From Escherichia phage AV109, in the sequence record OR352939.1: a DNA stretch of 64,000 nt, one strand, 5' to 3'. A program made the position numbers and the translations under genes. How positions within the stretch are numbered: the first letter of the stretch is position 1; every line of letters starts with the position of its first letter. This document shows positions 11,384 through 40,002 of this stretch, piece after piece. The notes under the pieces were generated by a model. The model was not told the DNA's origin and did no database searches. It saw only the letters and a program-made list of their open reading frames with translations.

Positions 11384-12484
11384 TTACGCTGTGAAGATTT
11401 TATCCCACATCGCAACAACTGCATCTCGATTATACTTCTTCCATACTGCTTCAGCACGTTTAACTCGAGCTTCGTATGTGTCAGTGAATTCTAATACAGC
11501 TTTTGTGTAAAGCGCAACTACTTCTTTCTTAGGAGTAGAGGAATCAATTTCTACACGCACAGTATCTGGGTCGTATTCAAATGTCGCATGAGGATAATCC
11601 TTAAAAACTAACTGGATTACAGGGACACCTTTAGAGATGGCTTCAATAGAACTATTCTCTACCGTACCTGTGTCAGGACACGTATTAATAAGTGCTTTAG
11701 CTGTTTTAAGACGTTCCATGATTTCACTATGTGGAGCATCAATAATAACAGGATACTTAGCCGGTGGTGCCCATTTACTAGGACAGTATCCTGCACCATT
11801 TTCGCCTAGTGCTTTAATCGCTTCAAGAGCAACATCAGTGCGACGCATTTTAGTGTCATAACGTTGGGCACTAATAATCAAATCAGTTGCTGGGAGAACT
11901 TCTGGCTTTTCGGTCAAACAAATAACCGGGTAGTCATCATGTTCAAATAATGGATTTTCACGCCAGTAATCATAATCAATGCTATCAGTAAGAGCTGAAG
12001 TCATATGGCAATATTTACGTTCAAATTCACGGAATGCTTTAGTAGGAGCATAGCTCTTACCACCGTATTTGTGGGTAAGAATAGTTTGTTTCCAAATTTC
12101 TACAATACCGCGAGATACAGGCTCAAATGGAGTTGCCATAAAATTTCTATGAACACTGGATAAACCGGCATCTTTAATTGCGTTAACAGTTAGTTTAGTC
12201 GGTTCCATAGTAACAACAAAATCGTATTCATGGATGCCGGCTAGTTCAACAATCTTACGAGCCATAGTATAACTCATACCTAGACTGAATTTAGTCAGAT
12301 GACCAACAGGATGATGATTAACTTTCCAGTCACCAAACGTGTCATTATCAAAGCCGATATAATCAATATCAGCACCGATGGACACAAGATATTTCAACAC
12401 ATTTAAATGTACTGCTTCAAGGCCACCTTGTACACGGTCAGGATTAAATGGGACTGCACGAGATGGGATAAACATAACTTTCAT
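11384..12484 (-). CDS. GT-B fold glycosyltransferase (GT4-like); candidate DNA hydroxymethylcytosine glycosyltransferase
   Basis: 366 aa; C-terminal nucleotide-sugar binding signature resembling GT4 E-x7-E (TGTVENSSIEAISKGVPVIQ); not present at this position in T4. Confidence 0.5.
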   Translation of the reverse strand: MKVMFIPSRAVPFNPDRVQGGLEAVHLNVLKYLVSIGADIDYIGFDNDTFGDWKVNHHPVGHLTKFSLGMSYTMARKIVELAGIHEYDFVVTMEPTKLTVNAIKDAGLSSVHRNFMATPFEPVSRGIVEIWKQTILTHKYGGKSYAPTKAFREFERKYCHMTSALTDSIDYDYWRENPLFEHDDYPVICLTEKPEVLPATDLIISAQRYDTKMRRTDVALEAIKALGENGAGYCPSKWAPPAKYPVIIDAPHSEIMERLKTAKALINTCPDTGTVENSSIEAISKGVPVIQLVFKDYPHATFEYDPDTVRVEIDSSTPKKEVVALYTKAVLEFTDTYEARVKRAEAVWKKYNRDAVVAMWDKIFTA

Positions 12485-12510: not shown

Positions 12511-12528
12511 AAGCTCCCGAAGGAGCTT
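12511..12528 (-). other. UUCG-tetraloop hairpin (AAGCUCC-UUCG-GGAGCUU) between HNH endonuclease gene and glycosyltransferase gene
   Basis: Inverted repeat with cgaa loop on plus strand; overlaps stop codon of the HNH gene. Confidence 0.4.
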
Positions 12529-13339
12529 AGGACATCCAACACATTTTATAACCTTTGCAGGTTCTGTTAGGATTATTTAATGCTTTCAATATATTAGAAG
12601 ACCCTATATCTAAATACTCCCTTAATTCATAAAGATAGTTAAAATCAATAGTTTCACCTGTTTTTACACTTGTGATTCTTATAGGCCTTCTTTCATATTT
12701 AGATTTATACAACTCTCTAGTCTTAGCTTTAGTTTCTTCTGACCTAGGAGTGTATGGTTTAAATCCTTTTGTTTTAAATGTTTCCATTCTTGATTTAGTT
12801 ATTTTATCCTGGTGTTCTTTTGTTTTTACAGGTGCTTTTCGCCCATTCTCCCAAGATAACTTGTTGGCCTGTATTATTTTATCTATTGCTTCTTGCGTAT
12901 GAGTTTTACCATAAAATGGATTTAATTCGCCTATACGTTGTGAAGCAATATGTGACATTAATTCTCTTGTTGCTTTAGTATGTTTTTTACCTTTAAATGG
13001 ATTGCCATTTTTAGCAATCCATTCTTTCATAAATCTAGAGTGCTCTTTAGAGAATTCTTGTTTAAGCCAATCATAATCTCTAGAATTTCTAGCTCCCATG
13101 TAAAAAGCTCTAATAGCCATAAGCATAGAACGGTTCTTATGAATTTTATAAAGCAATAAATGGGCGATAAAATGCTCTCTAGGGGTCATTTTAACTAGAT
13201 TTGATTTAGCATTACTCCCACCCATAGATTTAGGCAAAATATGGTGAGTTTCAGTATAATTAGGAATAGTGCTGCGGTTTTTAGCCGCAGCGATAAGTTT
13301 ATCATAAATTTTACGATAATTCATTATCCTAGCATCCAA
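12527..13339 (-). CDS. HNH homing endonuclease with NUMOD3-like repeats (Mob-like)
   Basis: 270 aa; HHILPKSMGG...N core and repeated NPFYGK.HT / NPFKGKKHT modules; occupies the mobA slot beside gene 39. Confidence 0.65.
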   Translation of the reverse strand: MDARIMNYRKIYDKLIAAAKNRSTIPNYTETHHILPKSMGGSNAKSNLVKMTPREHFIAHLLLYKIHKNRSMLMAIRAFYMGARNSRDYDWLKQEFSKEHSRFMKEWIAKNGNPFKGKKHTKATRELMSHIASQRIGELNPFYGKTHTQEAIDKIIQANKLSWENGRKAPVKTKEHQDKITKSRMETFKTKGFKPYTPRSEETKAKTRELYKSKYERRPIRITSVKTGETIDFNYLYELREYLDIGSSNILKALNNPNRTCKGYKMCWMS

Positions 13340-15162
13340 TCTTTACGGAGTTCAGGGTCGTTACCCATGAGCATTTCAAATAGTTCTTTCCAATTTTCAG
13401 GAAGTTTAACTACGTCGTACACAGGGTTTTGAATCATTTCTTTATATTCATCCCGCTGAAGTGAGCCCAATCCCTTGATGTATCGAATACTATGCTTAGG
13501 CAGTGTATCTTTAACTTCTTCATACTCAGCTACAGTATAAAACCATTTTTGAGTTTTGCCAATTTGTGCAATAATTACAGGCGTTTTAACAAAGCGAATA
13601 CGTCCTTGTTCAAACAATTCAGGCCAATTACTAAAGAAAGCAAGCAAAGCCGGATAAATACTTCCAAGGCCGTCATGATCGGCATCGGTCATAATTGCAA
13701 TATTACGGTAGTTCGTATTCTCTGCCTTTTCACCAAGAATAAGACCCGTGATAGCACAGATATCAAAGAGCTCTTTGTTCTTCATCATATCGGCATATGA
13801 CATACCCCAGCTATTCATCACCTTACCACGTAATGGGAATCCGCCGTGTAGTTCACGGTCACGAACATCAATGAGATAACCAATTGCCGAATCACCTTCT
13901 GTTAAAAACAATGTCGTATCTGCATCTTTACCACATTGGTTAGCTTTAATATGCTTATGAACCTTAGCTTTAGTTGCCTTTTTAGCTGCTTTAGTTTCTG
14001 CAGCCTTTTCTGCTGCCAATTTACGAGCTAATGCGGCTTCAATTATAGGCATTAAAACTGCTTCAGAATTCAAAATATTTTTTGCCAATTTTTTTGTATC
14101 TAATTTAATATGCGTCCGAATTTCGCCATAAGGACTTGTTAAACGCTCTTTGGTTTGGGAATCAAAACGAAGGTTCTTCATTCCACGAACGAACATTAAG
14201 AGAGTGAGACATTCCTTGATTCGCGCTTTAGTCACGTCGATTTTATATTTGCGTTTAATAGCCGGAATTAATTCTTCGCTAATGTCGTCCATCACACATT
14301 CAATGTGATGACCACCGTTTTTGGTATGGATGTTATTCACATAAGTTAAATGACGGAAGCCATCTGGTGACCGTCCAATGGCAATAGAGCATCCGTCTTG
14401 TTCTTGAATGATGGTCTCTTCATCAAATTGTTTAGCAAACTTCTTAAAGTTACCTTGAATCTTTTTGCCATTAAATTTAAATTCAATACCAGGATAAACG
14501 ACCGCCAATGTTTGGAGCCGGTCTATAGTAATATCTTGGTATATTTTTTCAAATTGATTCATTTCAAAATGTGAGAAATCAGGAATAAACTCGACCTTAG
14601 TACCGTTGTTTTTAGACGGCTTAGATTTCCAAGAAATATTATCAGCGTTATTAGAACAATTAACGGTCAATTCATTTTTACCATCTGAAGTAGTGCCAAC
14701 AAAAGAGACAGAAAAAATATTTGTTAATGAAGAACCGACACCGTTTTGTCCACCCGTAACACGTTCTTTGTCGTCACCAAAGTTGCCACCGGCTTTTGTA
14801 CGTGTCCACGCCGCAACTGGTCCTGGAATTTCTTCTCCTTCAGGAGTAATAACTGTTTCTTGAGGAATACCTCGACCATTATCTTCAACAGTCACTTTAT
14901 TAGAATTTAAATCAATACTAACGGAAATTTTATTAGCATATTTGAAATTGGTTCGAATAGCTTCGTCTACTGAGTTGTCAATAATTTCATCAATTAATTT
15001 GAGAACACCTGCAACATATTTAACCTTTTTAAATTCACCGAATAGGAAACGTTCTTGTTCTTCATTGGCAACACTTCCAATATACATGCCAGGACGCTTC
15101 AAACAATGCTCTTTATCAGATAGCATTTCAATTTTATTATCAATCATTAGATTTTCTCTCAA
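13324..15162 (-). CDS. 39: DNA topoisomerase II large subunit gp39 (GyrB-like), unsplit 39+60
   Basis: 612 aa continuous ORF with GyrB-type ATPase N-terminus (HCLKRPGMYIGS, DNGRGIP) and TOPRIM region; no separate gene 60 or bypass gap. Confidence 0.9.
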   Translation of the reverse strand: MRENLMIDNKIEMLSDKEHCLKRPGMYIGSVANEEQERFLFGEFKKVKYVAGVLKLIDEIIDNSVDEAIRTNFKYANKISVSIDLNSNKVTVEDNGRGIPQETVITPEGEEIPGPVAAWTRTKAGGNFGDDKERVTGGQNGVGSSLTNIFSVSFVGTTSDGKNELTVNCSNNADNISWKSKPSKNNGTKVEFIPDFSHFEMNQFEKIYQDITIDRLQTLAVVYPGIEFKFNGKKIQGNFKKFAKQFDEETIIQEQDGCSIAIGRSPDGFRHLTYVNNIHTKNGGHHIECVMDDISEELIPAIKRKYKIDVTKARIKECLTLLMFVRGMKNLRFDSQTKERLTSPYGEIRTHIKLDTKKLAKNILNSEAVLMPIIEAALARKLAAEKAAETKAAKKATKAKVHKHIKANQCGKDADTTLFLTEGDSAIGYLIDVRDRELHGGFPLRGKVMNSWGMSYADMMKNKELFDICAITGLILGEKAENTNYRNIAIMTDADHDGLGSIYPALLAFFSNWPELFEQGRIRFVKTPVIIAQIGKTQKWFYTVAEYEEVKDTLPKHSIRYIKGLGSLQRDEYKEMIQNPVYDVVKLPENWKELFEMLMGNDPELRKDWMLG

Positions 15163-33355: not shown

Positions 33356-33453
33356 TGTATTTTTCCATAGGCATCATTATATTTTACTCATGTTTAAAAG
33401 ATAAGATGATTATATACTAAGGGTTATACAGCATTTAAAACTTTAAATGGCTC

Positions 33454-34002
33454 TTAACGAGCCCATTTGATAATTTCTGTAATCAAATAATTACGTTCGC
33501 TTGCATTAAATCCTATAACTTTGTTAGCACCATCATGATTAAGTAATTGATACGTTTGGATTTTGTTATGAATTGCAAACTCTTCAAAATGTGAAATGAC
33601 TGTATTAAAACCGAATGAAGACAAAGTAATAAGGTCGTCTTCAAAACTTTCAGTCATTTCGTTACGTGTTAAAATAATTGTGAACACATCATGGTTTTGG
33701 CAAAGACGAACATAATCCTGTTCATAAACGTCAAGAACCGAGTCCGCATCTTGTCGAATACGTCCATAAACCCAGTTACTAATATATCCACGGTCTAACA
33801 GATAAATCTTAGTAGGGTCTAAATAATTCAACATCGTTTCGAAACAGCCAACTTCATTTCGAGACTTAACATCGAAACGTCCATCAACTGTTCGTTTAGG
33901 GAAATCAATTTTTACATATCTTTCACTAATTTCCATTATGTCATTAATGAAAGTTGTTTTACCAGCATTATCCGGTCCATCTACTAAAATAATTTTAGCC
34001 AT
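33454..34002 (-). CDS. P-loop kinase, thymidylate/dNMP-kinase-like
   Basis: 182 aa; Walker A GPDNAGKTT and DRG motif (LLDRGYISNWVYG) as in TMPK-family kinases; sits where T4 has segA/bgt. Confidence 0.5.
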   Translation of the reverse strand: MAKIILVDGPDNAGKTTFINDIMEISERYVKIDFPKRTVDGRFDVKSRNEVGCFETMLNYLDPTKIYLLDRGYISNWVYGRIRQDADSVLDVYEQDYVRLCQNHDVFTIILTRNEMTESFEDDLITLSSFGFNTVISHFEEFAIHNKIQTYQLLNHDGANKVIGFNASERNYLITEIIKWAR

Positions 34003-34003
34003 T

Positions 34004-34903
34004 TTATTCCTCGATTACGACATCTTCATATTTAGGTATATTATATGGTGAAGAAATTAAAGCATTAAAGTAGATGAACTCACCAAGACCTGGATGAAAT
34101 ACTTCTTCAGGATTTTCGAAATATTGAATCTTCGGACGTCCTTTAAGAATTTGATAGTACTCAGTTTTAGTTGGTTTAAAAATTCGAATCAACGCTTCTT
34201 CAGGATACTTATTTCTGTCAAAGCTATTATTTGGATCGGTTATATAAAGCGGTTGACCTAATTGAATTGCGCATTCAACAACTTGTTCAAAACGATAGCA
34301 TGGGTCACTAATTCGAAATGGATGAAAAATACCATCTAGATGAATAGGAGCCAAATCACCTACAAGACGCTGCATGATGGAAGGACGTATAACTTTCTGC
34401 GTTACGATAATCTTATTACCATCTGCACCTGCGTTAACCAGCACTTCTTTTTGACGTTCATTCAACACAGTTGTTTGGATTGAACGATTAACCGACAATA
34501 TGTCGGTTTTTAAGAATTCGTCAATATAAAAACGTGGTTTATTAGGGTCTGCGGTGATATTGAAATTGAATTCTACATCAAAAGCGCCGTCATATCCAGT
34601 GATATCTGTGATTAGAAAATCACAATCATAATAAGCAATTAATGAATCAACCACAAATTCATTTTCAGACCAGAAATATTTACGAGTGTTATACGCGTTA
34701 TCTTTATACCATAATGGAACAAACTTAAATTCTGGAAAAAGACGTTCGCATTCTTTAATATCAGATGCATTACGTGGATATGTAATCACATCACCCGGAT
34801 TAGCACGGTGCAAATGAAGTTGGAAGTTGCCATCCTTAAGGATAGCATACTGTCCAGTTTCATAAGACCGCATACTCAAGATAGGTACGCGGAAAATAGC
34901 CAT
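34004..34903 (-). CDS. Hypothetical protein in the bgt slot (candidate transferase)
   Basis: 299-aa ORF tightly packed between the P-loop kinase and the gene 42 homologue; no motif recognised. Confidence 0.45.
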   Translation of the reverse strand: MAIFRVPILSMRSYETGQYAILKDGNFQLHLHRANPGDVITYPRNASDIKECERLFPEFKFVPLWYKDNAYNTRKYFWSENEFVVDSLIAYYDCDFLITDITGYDGAFDVEFNFNITADPNKPRFYIDEFLKTDILSVNRSIQTTVLNERQKEVLVNAGADGNKIIVTQKVIRPSIMQRLVGDLAPIHLDGIFHPFRISDPCYRFEQVVECAIQLGQPLYITDPNNSFDRNKYPEEALIRIFKPTKTEYYQILKGRPKIQYFENPEEVFHPGLGEFIYFNALISSPYNIPKYEDVVIEE

Positions 34904-35619
34904 TAGTCAAGGAATCCTTTAACATAATCAAAATCACGTTCAAACACATGGGCACTTACCATGGTATGAGTATAATCACCAACTTCTACACCACATTCGT
35001 TAGCGATATAATGAAGTAATTTTCCTTGGAGATAAAAATCCAACTGCATAACAACAGCACAGTTCTGGGAACGCATATGACAGTGGGTATAAAGCTTACC
35101 GTCACGAATATAATAGGTCACTGAGTCAGTACATGGATATTCAAGCGTTTCGTCTGAATCAAGCAAAGCCTGATCAGAACTTTCTAGAATTTGGAACACA
35201 ACTCTTCGGGAGTTAGGCTTCTCTTTAAGTTCTTTTAGAAGAGCTGGTAATTGAGCCGCAATGCGAGGACCATAGAAAGTGTTGAAGTTCGCCGGCAAAA
35301 CATCTGATTTTGGTTTAGAAATAAATTTAGCGACATTAGGATATGCCTTAAACGCTTCTTCTGCGTTGGTACCACCAGAAATCATAAACTTCCAGAAGTC
35401 TTCGGCATATTCATAAGAGATGCGGTTAATACGTGGGTCGGTCATTTTGAATGATGATGGAGTGTCAACAACTACTGTCATAGACCCAATTTCATTACAA
35501 CGTCCAATACGAGAATCAGTTACGAATTCCGGGTTTTCTAAAATTTCACGATTGACTGCTTTAAATGCGGCTTGAAAATCTGCGGCTTTGATATATTTCA
35601 TTGTGTTATGTTTTCCCAT
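34903..35619 (-). CDS. 42: dCMP hydroxymethylase-like (thymidylate synthase family)
   Basis: 238 aa; TS-family active-site region (YPCTDSVTYYIRDGKLY, HMRSQN); position before gene 43 as T4 gene 42. Confidence 0.65.
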   Translation of the reverse strand: MGKHNTMKYIKAADFQAAFKAVNREILENPEFVTDSRIGRCNEIGSMTVVVDTPSSFKMTDPRINRISYEYAEDFWKFMISGGTNAEEAFKAYPNVAKFISKPKSDVLPANFNTFYGPRIAAQLPALLKELKEKPNSRRVVFQILESSDQALLDSDETLEYPCTDSVTYYIRDGKLYTHCHMRSQNCAVVMQLDFYLQGKLLHYIANECGVEVGDYTHTMVSAHVFERDFDYVKGFLD

Positions 35620-35661
35620 GTTTACCTCAATACAATTTATTATATACTCAATTTGTAAAGC

Positions 35662-35901
35662 TTATTTGAATTTCTTGGCAATGTTGATATAACGTAAAGC
35701 TTCAGTATCAATACTTCCAAGAACACTATGAAGAAATGCATCAGCGTAGTATTCCAATTGAACAGGTTCTTTAATCACTTTAGCCGCTTTGGTTTCAAAC
35801 AGGCCCATCAGGGCCTTTTTAAGAATTTGTTCGTTAGTGTTCAGTTTAATAGTCAAAATCTCTTCGTTAAGTTTATAATTAAAAGTTTTTCTAGAAATCA
35901 T
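35662..35901 (-). CDS. Hypothetical protein
   Basis: 79-aa ORF. Confidence 0.4.
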   Translation of the reverse strand: MISRKTFNYKLNEEILTIKLNTNEQILKKALMGLFETKAAKVIKEPVQLEYYADAFLHSVLGSIDTEALRYINIAKKFK

Positions 35902-37067
35902 TCCGGGTACCTCAAAGCGTCATCAGAGTTAGTTATATCAATAATAGATATAGAGTTTTCTGCTAACCCGTTTTTAGATAATTGACGTTTATAATATCTT
36001 TCACAATATGTACACGTCGTCCCGCAGATTTCATTAGCACAATCGAAATCTGGATGTCTGAACCACCTTTTTTCTAAAAAGCCATCTAACAAAGAGGTTT
36101 CAATATTTACTGTATGTGAAAACTCAGTTTCGTTTTCAAGAGTGAAAATGGTCTCTAAAGGCTTCCACAGTTCTAACAAATTACCTTCAAACTTTTCAGA
36201 AGCGTATGCTTCAAGAACTTTCAAAATGTAGTCTGTGCTACCTGTACGTCCTGAAACTTTGAATTGAGTGATACCAATATCATTATAAAGTTTCAAATCT
36301 TGAGGACGAACAAAACGAGTTCTCAACCAGTTAAATGGGTCTGTATCACGAGCTTTAATACAGTGCTGCATAGGATATCCGTTTAAGGATTTAGCATCAT
36401 CAGCTGTAACATCAGTACTATGGAAAATATAGCAAGAGTCACGATAGCTACAATGTGTTGTATACCCTTTACCAGCATTAGAACAGAACTCATTTACAAG
36501 AACTTCAAATATTATATTGTTCTTATTGCAAAACTCTGCTGCACGCTTCAGGAAAGAAACTGAACGGTTCTTATGAATTCCGCAGCAGACCTTTTTGATA
36601 TTATACTGGTCATGCAAGTATTTGATTTGAGTTACAGCATCGACATGTAGAATTGTTGAAACTTCAATCTCAATGTCTTTATTGACTTCACGAACAATTT
36701 CCATAACAACAGGGTTAGCGATAGTAATACGCCATACGCCTATTGACCAAAGATACTGAACATAATCCTGAATAGCTTTCTTCTTCCACTCAACTAGTTC
36801 TCTTTTTGAACCAGGATTTATCGTGTTGAGTGTATAGTTAAAGCAAATACCTAATTCGTTACAACGTTTAACGTAGTCTTCTAACATCTTTTTGTCAACG
36901 TCAGGAAGCCTAAAATCAGGTCTGGCTGCTACAAAAGCCATTTCTCTTGTAGAGCCATATACTTCGTTTATCAAGCTATTAGGATAGGTTTTATTGAGCT
37001 CTACGATTTTATCAAGAAGAGCTAAATCAAAATTCGTTCCGATTTTAAAAGTATTCATTTTTTGCAT
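35898..37067 (-). CDS. U32-peptidase-family-like protein with Cys clusters (putative Fe-S enzyme)
   Basis: 389 aa; blocks resembling the U32 family (ICFNYTLNTINP, EVLVNEFCSNAGKGYTTHCSY, FKVSGRTGS) plus C-terminal CANEICGTTCTYC; assignment from motif recall only. Confidence 0.35.
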   Translation of the reverse strand: MQKMNTFKIGTNFDLALLDKIVELNKTYPNSLINEVYGSTREMAFVAARPDFRLPDVDKKMLEDYVKRCNELGICFNYTLNTINPGSKRELVEWKKKAIQDYVQYLWSIGVWRITIANPVVMEIVREVNKDIEIEVSTILHVDAVTQIKYLHDQYNIKKVCCGIHKNRSVSFLKRAAEFCNKNNIIFEVLVNEFCSNAGKGYTTHCSYRDSCYIFHSTDVTADDAKSLNGYPMQHCIKARDTDPFNWLRTRFVRPQDLKLYNDIGITQFKVSGRTGSTDYILKVLEAYASEKFEGNLLELWKPLETIFTLENETEFSHTVNIETSLLDGFLEKRWFRHPDFDCANEICGTTCTYCERYYKRQLSKNGLAENSISIIDITNSDDALRYPE

Positions 37068-37113: not shown

Positions 37114-37515
37114 TTATAGATTCGGTTTATACGATTTAAATGTTTCGAATTCGCCTTTATTCATAAGAGCTTTGAATTCGTCAGGACGCATAGCTTTGTC
37201 GTCGATAATCCAATCATATACTGGTTTATGTGTTAGCAAATTATGGTACTTCAAGCCAATGTTTGCCAAGTTCTGAATCAGACTTGGGAGAATGTCAATT
37301 GCTATACGACCAGGACCTACTGACTTCATACCGCGAGCAGTGTAAAGCGTTATGGTATGCCCTGCATCATACAGGGCATTAATGGCAGACACCATTTCGA
37401 CGTCTGGTTTGAAGTTCACGTAATCACGATTGTTATTCCACTCTGTTATACAATCATCGACATCAAAACAAAGATTAAGCATGTTTTCTACACGGTGCAT
37501 TAGATTCGTTCCCAT
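37114..37515 (-). CDS. HAD-superfamily phosphatase (KdsC-like small sugar-phosphate phosphatase)
   Basis: 133 aa; DxD motif I (CFDVDDCIT) near N-terminus. Confidence 0.5.
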   Translation of the reverse strand: MGTNLMHRVENMLNLCFDVDDCITEWNNNRDYVNFKPDVEMVSAINALYDAGHTITLYTARGMKSVGPGRIAIDILPSLIQNLANIGLKYHNLLTHKPVYDWIIDDKAMRPDEFKALMNKGEFETFKSYKPNL

Positions 37516-39185
37516 TGATGAGTGATATCGCCACCGATTGGACGATAGGAAACACCAGTTTCTTTATCAGTTAGTACCCATTTACCAGGATTTTTTGTAA
37601 TCAGAGTAGCCGTTACAGGTTCTGCTACGTCATAACTAATAGAGCCGTCCTGAAGTACACGGCCCATGTTACGTAATTGCTTAGTCAGAAGTTCCATACC
37701 TTTATAATATGCGGCTACCGCTTTAAGTGGATTATTCTTGAAATAACCACCTAATGCAATCCAGATAATTGCCACAGCCAAATGATGATATTCATTAAAC
37801 GAACTCAGCTTTCCATATTTGTAAACTAATGGATTGATGTTAATAGTCACATTACAAGTTGTTTCATCAATAGTAAACTGTCCCCAGGTCGGATTAGCAT
37901 TGAATTCATCATAACCTGAAACAGCATAAAGCACTTTAGCTTCATCATACAATTTTGGCCCGTAAATCTTGGTTTCACCAAAATATCCACGAGGGTCGAT
38001 AAATTTGACTTCGCCGTTATCAGTAATCATAGTATTACTGAAGTTCGGGTCACCATGAATAACAGAGTACTGTCCCTGAGAACGGTTATGATAACGAATA
38101 AGGTGTTCTAAAGCTTGTTTCAGCATTGGCTTCAGACGTCCAATCTTAGTGTAGTTCACATGTGTGATTTTACCAAATGAATCAATCAACGGTTGAATGC
38201 TTTCACAACGATCAATAACTTTCGTATAGAATTCTTTAGTGAAATCACGACGAACAGTTTCAGGACTTACAAAATAAGTGTCTGTGCTGAATTTCAGTGC
38301 ATCTAAAATTGCATCAACAATTTGTGGACGAGCAAGACTTGATTTGGATTTAATATATTCAAATGCCGGCTTACCTTTAATGCGTTCCATTTCAAAGTTA
38401 TTTTCATTAACAGAAACTAACTGAGGAACTGAATCTGATTTCACTTTAAGATACCATGAAATCTCATCTTTCTGAAGAGCTCGACCTTGTTCAGTTAATG
38501 CGAATTTAGTTACAGTTTCTTCACCAATTTCAACTGCATTAAAACTACGATTAAGTTCACGAACTTCATGAGCCTTTTCAAGTTTAGGCATATCACCAAG
38601 GTCGATGATATTCATAAGCTCTGATTTATTGAATGCGCCGCTGTAAAGGAATTCTACGAAATCACGTCCTTTGCAGTATTCATGAATTTCCTCATCGGTA
38701 GAACCCATGTAGAATTCCCAGTCTTTGAACTGGTAAATTCCCACAACATTACCACCTGTTGAACCTACGTTAGTGATATTTTCACCATCGAAATTATATC
38801 GACATTCGTCACCCTTAACATAGATTGCGTTAACATTCCAAGACCATGAACCAAAATCAGGAATAATATCACACCAGTTAACAATTACGTTATGGCCGTC
38901 TAAATCTTTGTGTAATTTAGCAAGAGCATAAGCAGAACCATACGCTTCATCGACTGTACGAATAGTCACATTGAACCCTTCTTGCTCACAATAAGCTCGA
39001 ACAGTTTCAGCAAATTTTGAATGAACTACTACAATAATTTCATCTGCGCCAAGGTCAGAATAAATTGTATACAAATTGCTCAGAATAGTGTCTTGTTTAT
39101 AGTTAACAAGCACCTTAGGAATATGGTGAGTAATTGGATATAAACGAGTTGCCAATCCAGCACCAAGAATAACAGCTTTTTTCAT
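37500..39185 (-). CDS. Bifunctional sugar-1-phosphate nucleotidyltransferase / sugar kinase (APH/choline-kinase-like C-terminal domain)
   Basis: 561 aa; N-terminal NTP-transferase signature (KAVILGAGLATRLYPITHHIPKVLV); C-terminal phosphotransferase motifs (HGDPNFSNTMI, KFIDPRGYFG). Confidence 0.6.
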   Translation of the reverse strand: MKKAVILGAGLATRLYPITHHIPKVLVNYKQDTILSNLYTIYSDLGADEIIVVVHSKFAETVRAYCEQEGFNVTIRTVDEAYGSAYALAKLHKDLDGHNVIVNWCDIIPDFGSWSWNVNAIYVKGDECRYNFDGENITNVGSTGGNVVGIYQFKDWEFYMGSTDEEIHEYCKGRDFVEFLYSGAFNKSELMNIIDLGDMPKLEKAHEVRELNRSFNAVEIGEETVTKFALTEQGRALQKDEISWYLKVKSDSVPQLVSVNENNFEMERIKGKPAFEYIKSKSSLARPQIVDAILDALKFSTDTYFVSPETVRRDFTKEFYTKVIDRCESIQPLIDSFGKITHVNYTKIGRLKPMLKQALEHLIRYHNRSQGQYSVIHGDPNFSNTMITDNGEVKFIDPRGYFGETKIYGPKLYDEAKVLYAVSGYDEFNANPTWGQFTIDETTCNVTININPLVYKYGKLSSFNEYHHLAVAIIWIALGGYFKNNPLKAVAAYYKGMELLTKQLRNMGRVLQDGSISYDVAEPVTATLITKNPGKWVLTDKETGVSYRPIGGDITHQWERI

Positions 39186-39240: not shown

Positions 39241-39370
39241 CATACTTTGCTTGTAGTCCAATCATAATCCATCCAATTACAAGTGTTGGAATCATTACCG
39301 GAGCCGTTAAGCTCCAGTAGATAGTCATGACAAGCATCAATAGTAAAAGTCCTATTGTTATTGCTTTCAT
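39227..39370 (-). CDS. Small membrane protein (about 47 aa)
   Basis: ATG 39370 overlapping stop of SIS gene (ATGA), GAGG RBS; translation MKAITIGLLLLMLVMTIYWSLTAPVMIPTLVIGWIMIGLQAKYECFN; T4 has membrane protein Imm in this interval. Confidence 0.3.
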   Translation of the reverse strand: MKAITIGLLLLMLVMTIYWSLTAPVMIPTLVIGWIMIGLQAKYECFN

Positions 39371-40002
39371 TGTTCGCCTCGTAACATGGCACCTAGTGCA
39401 CCGCCTGGATGGAACTTAAGGAAATCATTAGAGGTAAATCCACGTTCAGACGAAAGGTTGATAGCAAACGTATCGATAAGCGCTAACAACAATGTAGTGG
39501 ACATTGTCGGAGCTAAAGAGTTCTCGTCAACTTCTACCGCGATACCAGTACAGAACGTATAATCAAAAAGAGCTTCGTATTCTTGTGGAATGTCAGGGTT
39601 ACAATGTAACAGAATCTGTTTAACCTGAGGACGAATCATACGAAGATGTTTAGCAACACCTATCATTTCTTCAGTCTTACCAGAACGACTAATATGAATC
39701 AACACGTCATTAGGTGCAATAAATCCTGCGTCACCATGAGAATAATGCCCAGTGTTCAAATACATGCTAGGAATACCTAGTGAAGCAAATGTCTCGGAAG
39801 CTTTAGTTGCGATATTAGCATTCTTACCAACACCTGTAATAATTACCCGGCTTTCATAATTACTAAGTCCAGGGCGTCGAAGAGTTTCTAGAATAGCATT
39901 ATAACGAGCAGGGTTTTGACTAATTACTTTGGCCATAGCGGCCAAAGAAGAAGCTTGTTTTATGATTGCGTCAATAGCGATAGTAATAGGAGTAGTTTTC
40001 AT
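39367..40002 (-). CDS. SIS-domain sugar-phosphate isomerase, KpsF/GutQ-type (arabinose-5-phosphate isomerase-like), no CBS domains
   Basis: 211 aa; ITGVGKNANIATKASETFASLGIPSMYL, HGDAGFIAPNDVLIHISRSGKTEEM, LAPTMSTTLLLALID, FHPGGALG match the KpsF/GutQ SIS-domain pattern. Confidence 0.6.
   Translation of the reverse strand: MKTTPITIAIDAIIKQASSLAAMAKVISQNPARYNAILETLRRPGLSNYESRVIITGVGKNANIATKASETFASLGIPSMYLNTGHYSHGDAGFIAPNDVLIHISRSGKTEEMIGVAKHLRMIRPQVKQILLHCNPDIPQEYEALFDYTFCTGIAVEVDENSLAPTMSTTLLLALIDTFAINLSSERGFTSNDFLKFHPGGALGAMLRGEQ

Follow-up and report, generated by a model that had tools for sequence, protein, structure and literature searches.

In the β-glucosyltransferase/gp42/gp1 module of phage T4, dCMP is modified first, the product is then phosphorylated, and the base is glycosylated last. 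The T4 genes run in the order uvsX-segA-b-gt-42-imm-43, with the transferase gene downstream of a ThyA-family gene. The same slot is occupied, and the same logic would be followed, by two adjacent open reading frames (ORFs) of Escherichia phage AV109 (OR352939.1), of which a stretch of 64,000 nucleotides, here called the window, was analysed. The first encodes a 182-aa kinase with a thymidylate kinase (TMK) fold and the second a 299-aa predicted glycosyltransferase (GT). Together with the adjoining thymidylate-synthase homologue they probably, if by a modest margin of belief, form a synthase-transferase-kinase unit within a cluster for arabinosyl-5-hydroxycytosine, in which the transferase would add the first arabinofuranose (Araf) and the kinase would serve 5-hydroxy-dCMP.

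The closest described relatives of the two proteins are RB69 gp45 and gp46:47 and DLP3 gp78 and gp79, whose published functions are predictions (Lee et al., NAR 2026, PMC13326640). Table 1 of that paper already lists both genes, with the folds predicted for their products and the pathway steps assigned to them. RB69 gp48, a 5-hydroxy-dCMP synthase associated with flavin, converts dCMP and O2 to 5-hydroxy-dCMP, and the SIS, kinase/nucleotidyltransferase and HAD enzymes of the orthologous cluster produce UDP-arabinofuranose (UDP-Araf) (PMC13326640). RB69 DNA, earlier described as containing arabosyl-hydroxymethylcytosine (PMC6024577), carries α-D-Araf and β-D-Araf-(1-3)-α-D-Araf on cytosine O5 (PMC13326640). 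The sugar is joined to C5 directly via an ether oxygen, as Lee et al. 2026 show (PMC13326640). The window is that of an RB69-like Mosigvirus: 6.5 kb around the locus share 99% identity with Escherichia phage AV114 and 98% with many further Mosigvirus genomes, and the gene order is syntenic with RB69 ORF045c-ORF055c. The same genus-level system is reportedly also the subject of He et al. (Nat Chem Biol 2026), for the Afh pathway of phage HY126, and of Mahler et al. (Cell Host Microbe 2025), for the arabinosyl-hydroxy-cytosine phages Bas46, Bas47 and LC53. A transposon-mutagenesis preprint that mentions LC53 and Bas46 contains no data on whether the kinase and transferase genes are essential.

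The chemistry of the locus is set by the 238-aa thymidylate-synthase homologue (34903-35619, minus strand). A sequence-only reading of this DNA had called it a gene 42 homologue and had assumed hydroxymethylcytosine (hmC) chemistry behind it. The protein is ~98% identical to PDB entries 9iqc, 9ir2 and 9iqu (E 8e-161), which would appear to come from one study. It carries ThyA D169N and N177D (MRSQN...LD), the signature defined for 5-hydroxy-dCMP synthases (PMC13326640), whereas T4 gp42 retains D169 (MRSND). The PDB match and the two substitutions mark it as a 5-hydroxy-dCMP synthase, not a dCMP hydroxymethylase, and the assumption of hmC had to be given up. Because the neighbour is of this type and the sugar sits on the C5 oxygen, the base in this system is arabinosyl-5-hydroxycytosine and not hydroxymethylcytosine; there is no hydroxymethyl group.

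The 182-aa ORF (33454-34002, minus strand) and the 299-aa ORF (34004-34903, minus strand) lie between uvsX and the synthase gene, and T4 has segA and b-gt in the same interval, so that their description as occupying the β-glucosyltransferase slot holds. Translational coupling of the 299-aa gene to the ThyA homologue, also proposed earlier, is visible as an overlap of the synthase stop with the 299-aa start (TAATG at 34903), and one base separates the 299-aa stop from the kinase start (TAAAATG). Judged from these junctions, synthase, transferase and kinase make up a translationally coupled three-gene unit, of which the last two are the ORFs studied. Both ORFs are real genes and not chance ORFs, since they are conserved in ~340 phage genomes (down to 35-47% identity), match PHROG families (phrog_3891 for the 299-aa protein, E 8e-156; phrog_761 for the 182-aa protein, E 2e-45) and give confident AlphaFold models (pLDDT 95.6 and 87.6). 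No second copy of the kinase or transferase gene was found in the window.

The 182-aa protein is the orthologue of RB69 gp45 ('nucleotide kinase'). Structural search with its model returned a P-loop nucleoside monophosphate kinase fold nearest to TMKs, and the description of the protein as a thymidylate-kinase-like P-loop kinase was borne out. The P-loop GPDNAGKTT (residues 9-17; 33952-33978, minus strand) is of the TMK type with Asp at the third position, and the DRG motif (residues 70-72; 33787-33795, minus strand) corresponds to the TMK 'DR(Y/H)' motif. GPDNAGKTT, FPKR and DRGYISNWVY align to vaccinia, yeast and human TMK. For example, the P-loop aligns to GVDRAGKST of human thymidylate kinase (TMPK), as well as to the vaccinia and yeast P-loops, and DRG aligns to DRY of the yeast enzyme. 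The TMK-type motifs GxDxxGK, FPxR and DR...S...Y are kept across 51 diverse members of the kinase family, with G9, D11, G14 and K15 present in 94-100% of them and D70 and R71 in 100%.

Cellular, poxviral and eukaryotic TMKs (vaccinia 2v54, human TMPK) have in common with this kinase the fold, the P-loop GxDxxGK(S/T)T, FPxR and DR...S...Y. It differs from them in sequence (~14-19% identity, below curated cut-offs), in a model with one helix fewer between strand 2 and the DR strand, and in an invariant D122-D123 in the lid region that is specific to its family. The kinase has neither sequence nor structural membership in the family of the T4 gp1 deoxynucleoside monophosphate (dNMP) kinase (PF21448, DNMK). 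No PDB entry matches the 182-aa or the 299-aa sequence.

The 299-aa protein had been an unknown that could be a second transferase, and a transferase is what structure prediction and structural search, both proposed earlier for the two proteins, point to. The model has two Rossmann-like domains in a compact, GT4-like GT-B topology, a predicted match that agrees with the one published for RB69 gp46:47, 'arabinosyltransferase 1'. The protein is placed in the phrog_3891 'arabinosyltransferase 1' family (RB69 gp46:47/DLP3 gp79) by orthology, by synteny with RB69 and by the adjoining D169N synthase, and is 46% identical to the DLP3 homologue. Sequence and profile searches against Pfam, NCBIfam and the PDB gave no match for it. 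T4 β-glucosyltransferase also has a GT-B fold, but the 299-aa protein has no sequence or close structural similarity to it. By eye no classic E-x7-E motif can be made out, and FHPGLGEF stands in the equivalent region. Thirty residues are invariant in the transferase family. One block is N-terminal (M11 R12 S13, Y19, K23 D24 G25 N26, R33), the acceptor-domain position of GT-B enzymes, and a second group comprises F193-P195-F196-R197, D200 and H270-P271-G272. The best reading of the protein is as the predicted first, base-proximal arabinofuranosyltransferase, and a retaining GT4-like fold would suit the α linkage of the inner sugar.

In the RB69 reference (NC_004928; locus L002, 4598-5498) the transferase is split into ORF046 and ORF047, whereas the window and AV114 have one intact 299-aa ORF. 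The split is a sequencing error according to Lee et al. (PMC13326640).

The two genes occur widely and in the same genera, with 343 phage records for the kinase and 348 for the transferase. In Shewanella phage Thanatos the synthase-transferase-kinase triad recurs in the same order (TH1_062/063/064), with 47.5% identity for the transferase and 44% for the kinase. The Thanatos modification has been reported as a deoxypentose and TH1_063 as a UDP-xylose pyrophosphorylase (PMC12838424); Lee et al. treat the phage as mono-arabinosylated (PMC13326640). In Escherichia phage Bp7 (Dhakavirus; locus L017, 3768-5889) the order is kinase-synthase-transferase with every junction overlapping, and the cluster contains no gene of the peptidase-U32 family. 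Clusters of this Dhakavirus type probably account for the ~40 Escherichia phages that have kinase and transferase and no U32 match. Contigs of uncultured phages have the kinase gene immediately after that of a D169N-type synthase. Outside the Straboviridae, the triad is present in Agrobacterium phage Atu_ph04 (Pootjesviridae; hhalign 99.2% for the transferase, 92.8% for the kinase).

Serratia phage PS2 (locus L015, 4217-5927) is of the hmC type. Its gp42 keeps D169, and β-glucosyltransferase and β-glucosyl-HMC-α-glucosyltransferase are both present. Directly after gp42 lies a full-length, highly diverged homologue of the transferase (hhalign 99.2%) that has lost the invariant motifs MRSY and FPFRISD, and no TMK-like kinase is found at this locus. 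Because gene order varies, the kinase follows D169N synthases, and PS2 has a transferase homologue with no kinase, the constant partner of the kinase is, on this comparison, the hydroxylase-type synthase and not the transferase family. These comparative data narrow the role of the second, TMK-like kinase, which travels with the synthase rather than with the transferase. They also make 5-hydroxy-dCMP the favoured candidate for its substrate, since the constant partner is a synthase of the hydroxylase type.

Several details of Atu_ph04 may be added. In locus L008 (3237-7431) a weak gp1-like DNMK, a 161-aa ORF, the D169N-type synthase, the transferase homologue and the TMK-like kinase stand in a row, and the record leaves most of them without annotation. 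The 161-aa ORF has no Pfam match, and its position suggests a candidate dCTPase. The DR motif of the Atu_ph04 kinase has another residue in place of its Asp (LVRSF). Tenacibaculum phage PTm1 was also considered; it has a related ThyA homologue, but the neighbours of that gene are not homologous to the transferase or the kinase.

In the proposed pathway the synthase would convert dCMP to 5-hydroxy-dCMP with flavin and O2. The 182-aa protein, as a TMK-type dNMP kinase dedicated to this product, would convert 5-hydroxy-dCMP and ATP to 5-hydroxy-dCDP, which would feed host nucleoside diphosphate kinase and then the phage polymerase. The 299-aa transferase would place the first Araf from UDP-Araf onto the 5-OH of 5-hydroxycytosine, with DNA that has already been replicated as the most probable acceptor.

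A number of points weigh against this assignment. Curated dTMP-kinase models do not recognise the kinase (no PF02223 match at E ≤ 0.1; TIGR00041 16 bits against a cut-off of 83.25), and profile alignments with the human and E. coli TMKs reach no further than the first 25-40 residues and do not map the base contacts. RB69 gp159, the gp1 homologue, converts 5-hydroxy-dCMP to 5-hydroxy-dCDP, and gp48 with gp159 suffices for 5-hydroxy-dC in E. coli DNA (PMC13326640). A second kinase for this step would look redundant because gp159 already performs it. Single DLP3 glycosyltransferases were inactive on 5-hydroxycytosine DNA with either UDP-Araf or UDP-arabinopyranose (PMC13326640). The activity of both proteins is a prediction in the published work too, and an assignment of the two genes may already be contained in He et al. 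2026.

Both kinase types nonetheless coexist in T4-like phages, apparently also in Atu_ph04, and the redundancy keeps alive a rival in which the kinase acts on an arabinosylated nucleotide. The transferase would arabinosylate 5-hydroxy-dCMP itself, the TMK-like kinase would handle a bulky product that the gp1-type kinase refuses, and the polymerase would insert a glycosylated dNTP. Two coexisting dNMP kinases would then be accounted for, as would the failure of single transferases on 5-hydroxycytosine DNA in vitro. In the window the genes are translationally coupled and their order, synthase, transferase, kinase, equals the order of the reactions; this order varies, being kinase-synthase-transferase in Dhakavirus, and in contig L012 a kinase fusion stands ahead of a transferase-like gene. 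The transferase family is acidic (median isoelectric point, pI, 5.1), which would fit a nucleotide acceptor, but T4 α-glucosyltransferase (pI 6.1) is acidic as well, while T4 β-glucosyltransferase has a pI of 9.05. Net charge as a test of DNA against nucleotide acceptors was dropped, since the α-enzyme is a true DNA glycosyltransferase. Lee et al. leave undecided whether the first arabinosylation takes place on the nucleotide or on DNA, although a later arabinosylation step acts on DNA (PMC13326640). The T-even paradigm is post-replicative, and the kinase tracks the type of synthase and not the transferase family. Arabinosylation before replication is unlikely, though it is the strongest of the competing explanations; if true, it would be the first known case of a DNA precursor that is glycosylated before replication.

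The kinase might instead act on DNA, phosphorylating the 5-hydroxyl of 5-hydroxycytosine in the manner of the 5-hydroxymethyluracil (5-hmU) DNA kinases (5-HMUDK) of phages M6 (gp54), ViI (gp67) and SP10 (N-terminal part of gp186), an analogy already drawn in the sequence-only reading. In both cases a hypermodifying phage encodes a P-loop kinase next to a pyrimidine-modifying enzyme of the ThyA family, and relatives of both kinases are fused to domains of the HhH fold. Homology to the 5-hmU kinases was rejected, as the hhalign match to M6 gp54 (80.7%) covers the P-loop half only, with the DR motif outside it, and the families differ (phrog_800 for M6 gp54, phrog_761 for the window kinase). The nucleotide-binding motifs that are conserved are TMK-specific. 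The 5-HMUDK reaction creates a leaving group, which O-glycosylation of a 5-OH does not need; the bridging oxygen remains in the product as an ether (PMC13326640). Partners of the kind found in such systems, an HhH-fold aGPT-pyrophosphorylase and a hydroxymethylase, are absent from the window, which has no HhH or MBD4-like domain and a ThyA-homologue neighbour of the hydroxylase type.

The remaining argument for a kinase working on DNA comes from distant relatives. A search with the kinase profile against 1.8 billion representatives yielded 292 relatives, eight of which (314-357 aa; profile E 7e-19 and weaker) have an extra C-terminal MBD4-type HhH-GPD glycosylase domain, a DNA-binding, base-flipping module. 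The profile of the fused domain matches MBD4 in the PDB with E 2.8e-21, and its motif GxGKYxxDS is invariant in 7 of the 8. The fusions comprise P0179 (L010, 8001-9074), P0180 (L011, 1446-2390), P0184 (L012, 127-1092) and five more. In the two uncultured phage contigs where upstream context was recovered, L010 and L011, the fusion lies directly after a D169N-type synthase. In L010 the gene stands between this synthase and genes for a flavin mononucleotide (FMN) reductase, a SIS isomerase and an AfhE-like enzyme, and in L012 a transferase-like gene comes next. The arrangement recalls the kinase/HhH-fold fusion SP10 gp186 and may hint that the kinase works at the DNA. The fused domain could equally be a repair glycosylase, and its simpler reading may be as one for deaminated 5-hydroxycytosine. 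Phosphorylation of the base in DNA is regarded as improbable. Together with the U32/chorismate-mutase pair described below, these fusions are more novel than the kinase and transferase finding itself.

A plain dTMP kinase that raises dTTP supply and has no link to cytosine modification is slightly less probable still. It would suit the TMK fold and the label 'thymidylate kinase' that many records give to the kinase. The protein falls short of the curated dTMP-kinase models, however, and the kinase occurs only in phages with the 5-hydroxy-type synthase cluster, being absent at this locus from T4 and PS2. T4 gp1 acts on dTMP, and this substrate is already covered by host Tmk and the phage gp1 homologue.

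Least probable of all is that the 299-aa family are UDP-pentose pyrophosphorylases, as reported for TH1_063, the syntenic Thanatos protein, which formed UDP-xylose from UTP and xylose-1-phosphate in vitro by liquid chromatography-mass spectrometry (PMC12838424), because the fold is GT-B and not that of a nucleotidyltransferase, a genuine nucleotidyltransferase is already in the cluster, and a host uridylyltransferase may have contaminated the His-tag preparation. UDP-xylose synthesis is unlikely as a native activity of a GT-B fold. The acceptors on which transfer by TH1_063 was tried (dCMP, dCTP, cytosine and plasmid) all lack a 5-OH (PMC12838424), so the negative transfer result is uninformative.

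Arabinosyl-5-hydroxycytosine, the base to which the synthase-transferase-kinase unit is assigned here, has practical consequences. It shields a large set of coliphages of the therapeutic type (Mosigvirus, Dhakavirus and relatives) from restriction enzymes and DNA-targeting CRISPR, and gives the same protection to phages of Acinetobacter, Klebsiella and Serratia. It also makes these phages targets of type IV systems.

The sugar nucleotide for the transferase would come from genes upstream of the three-gene unit, all on the minus strand. A HAD-type phosphatase (37114-37515; RB69 gp51, AfhF-like) matches phrog_1238 and the capsule biosynthesis phosphatase model TIGR01689 (E 4e-13). A 561-aa bifunctional sugar-1-phosphate nucleotidyltransferase and kinase (37500-39185; RB69 gp52:53, AfhE-like) has an N-terminal PF00483 domain, a kinase-like C-terminal part and NCBIfam nucleotidyltransferase matches. 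The pathway roles of these two enzymes follow PMC13326640. A SIS-domain arabinose-5-phosphate isomerase (39367-40002; RB69 gp55) matches PF01380 (E 5e-10) and is annotated as D-arabinose-5-phosphate isomerase in AV114. In the RB69 reference (locus L002, 8095-9781) the nucleotidyltransferase-kinase is split into ORF052 and ORF053, and the window and AV114 have the single 561-aa ORF.

Between the phosphatase and synthase genes lie a 389-aa protein of the peptidase-U32 family (35898-37067, minus strand; RB69 gp50; PF01136 E 7e-11, with a weak UbiU match) and a 79-aa ORF (35662-35901, minus strand; phrog_8601) that overlaps its stop. The U32 protein is the most conserved product of the cluster, with 79% identity to Thanatos TH1_065 against 44-47% for kinase and transferase. 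It is present in 221 phage records, all at least 80% identical, and is missing from all 57 Acinetobacter phages with kinase and transferase. Lee et al. list it just as "sugar or heterocycle reductase" (PMC13326640). Klebsiella phage KLB31 (Kanagawavirus) and Thanatos encode a type II chorismate mutase in the small, translationally coupled ORF that overlaps the U32 stop (PF01817 E 1.3e-9 in KLB31, locus L016, 3483-4894; E 2e-8 in Thanatos, locus L003, 7462-8852). The 79-aa ORF of the window gave no CM_2 or chorismate-mutase signal.

In E. coli, U32 proteins hydroxylate RNA bases: RlhA makes 5-hydroxycytidine in 23S rRNA, and TrhP makes 5-hydroxyuridine in tRNA. Both are prephenate-dependent; RlhA further needs iron-sulfur clusters and conserved C-terminal cysteines, and TrhP works beside an O2-dependent alternative. 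The phage U32 protein has a C-terminal CxxxCxxxCxxC motif. By analogy, the U32/chorismate-mutase pair suggests a prephenate-dependent, O2-independent route to 5-hydroxycytosine, which would run parallel to the O2-dependent synthase and serve phages of facultative anaerobes.

Just upstream of the three-gene unit a MotA-box-like element (GCTTTA, 11 nt, TATAAT; 35639-35661, minus strand) was read by eye; by comparison with the T4 consensus it is presumably a middle promoter. A generic scan for sigma-70 promoters and terminators gave sites no more numerous than in shuffled sequence. A second MotA-box-like element (TGCTGTA, 12 nt, TATAAT; 33380-33450, minus strand), also read by eye, lies between the kinase stop and uvsX. 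This promoter-like element would be a separate middle promoter for uvsX, and the three-gene unit therefore appears to end ahead of it.

A second glycosyltransferase of the window lies far from the cluster. This 366-aa protein (11384-12484, minus strand) is 96% identical to RB69p003, the product of RB69 ORF003c, and its gene is flanked by rIIA and gene 39, an arrangement shared with RB69. PDB entry 9iqz ('phage HY126 glycosyltransferase') is of the same length, 366 residues. A 270-aa ORF with NUMOD3 and weak HNH matches (12527-13339, minus strand), homing-endonuclease-like, separates the transferase gene from that of the topoisomerase large subunit (13324-15162); RB69 has the two side by side.

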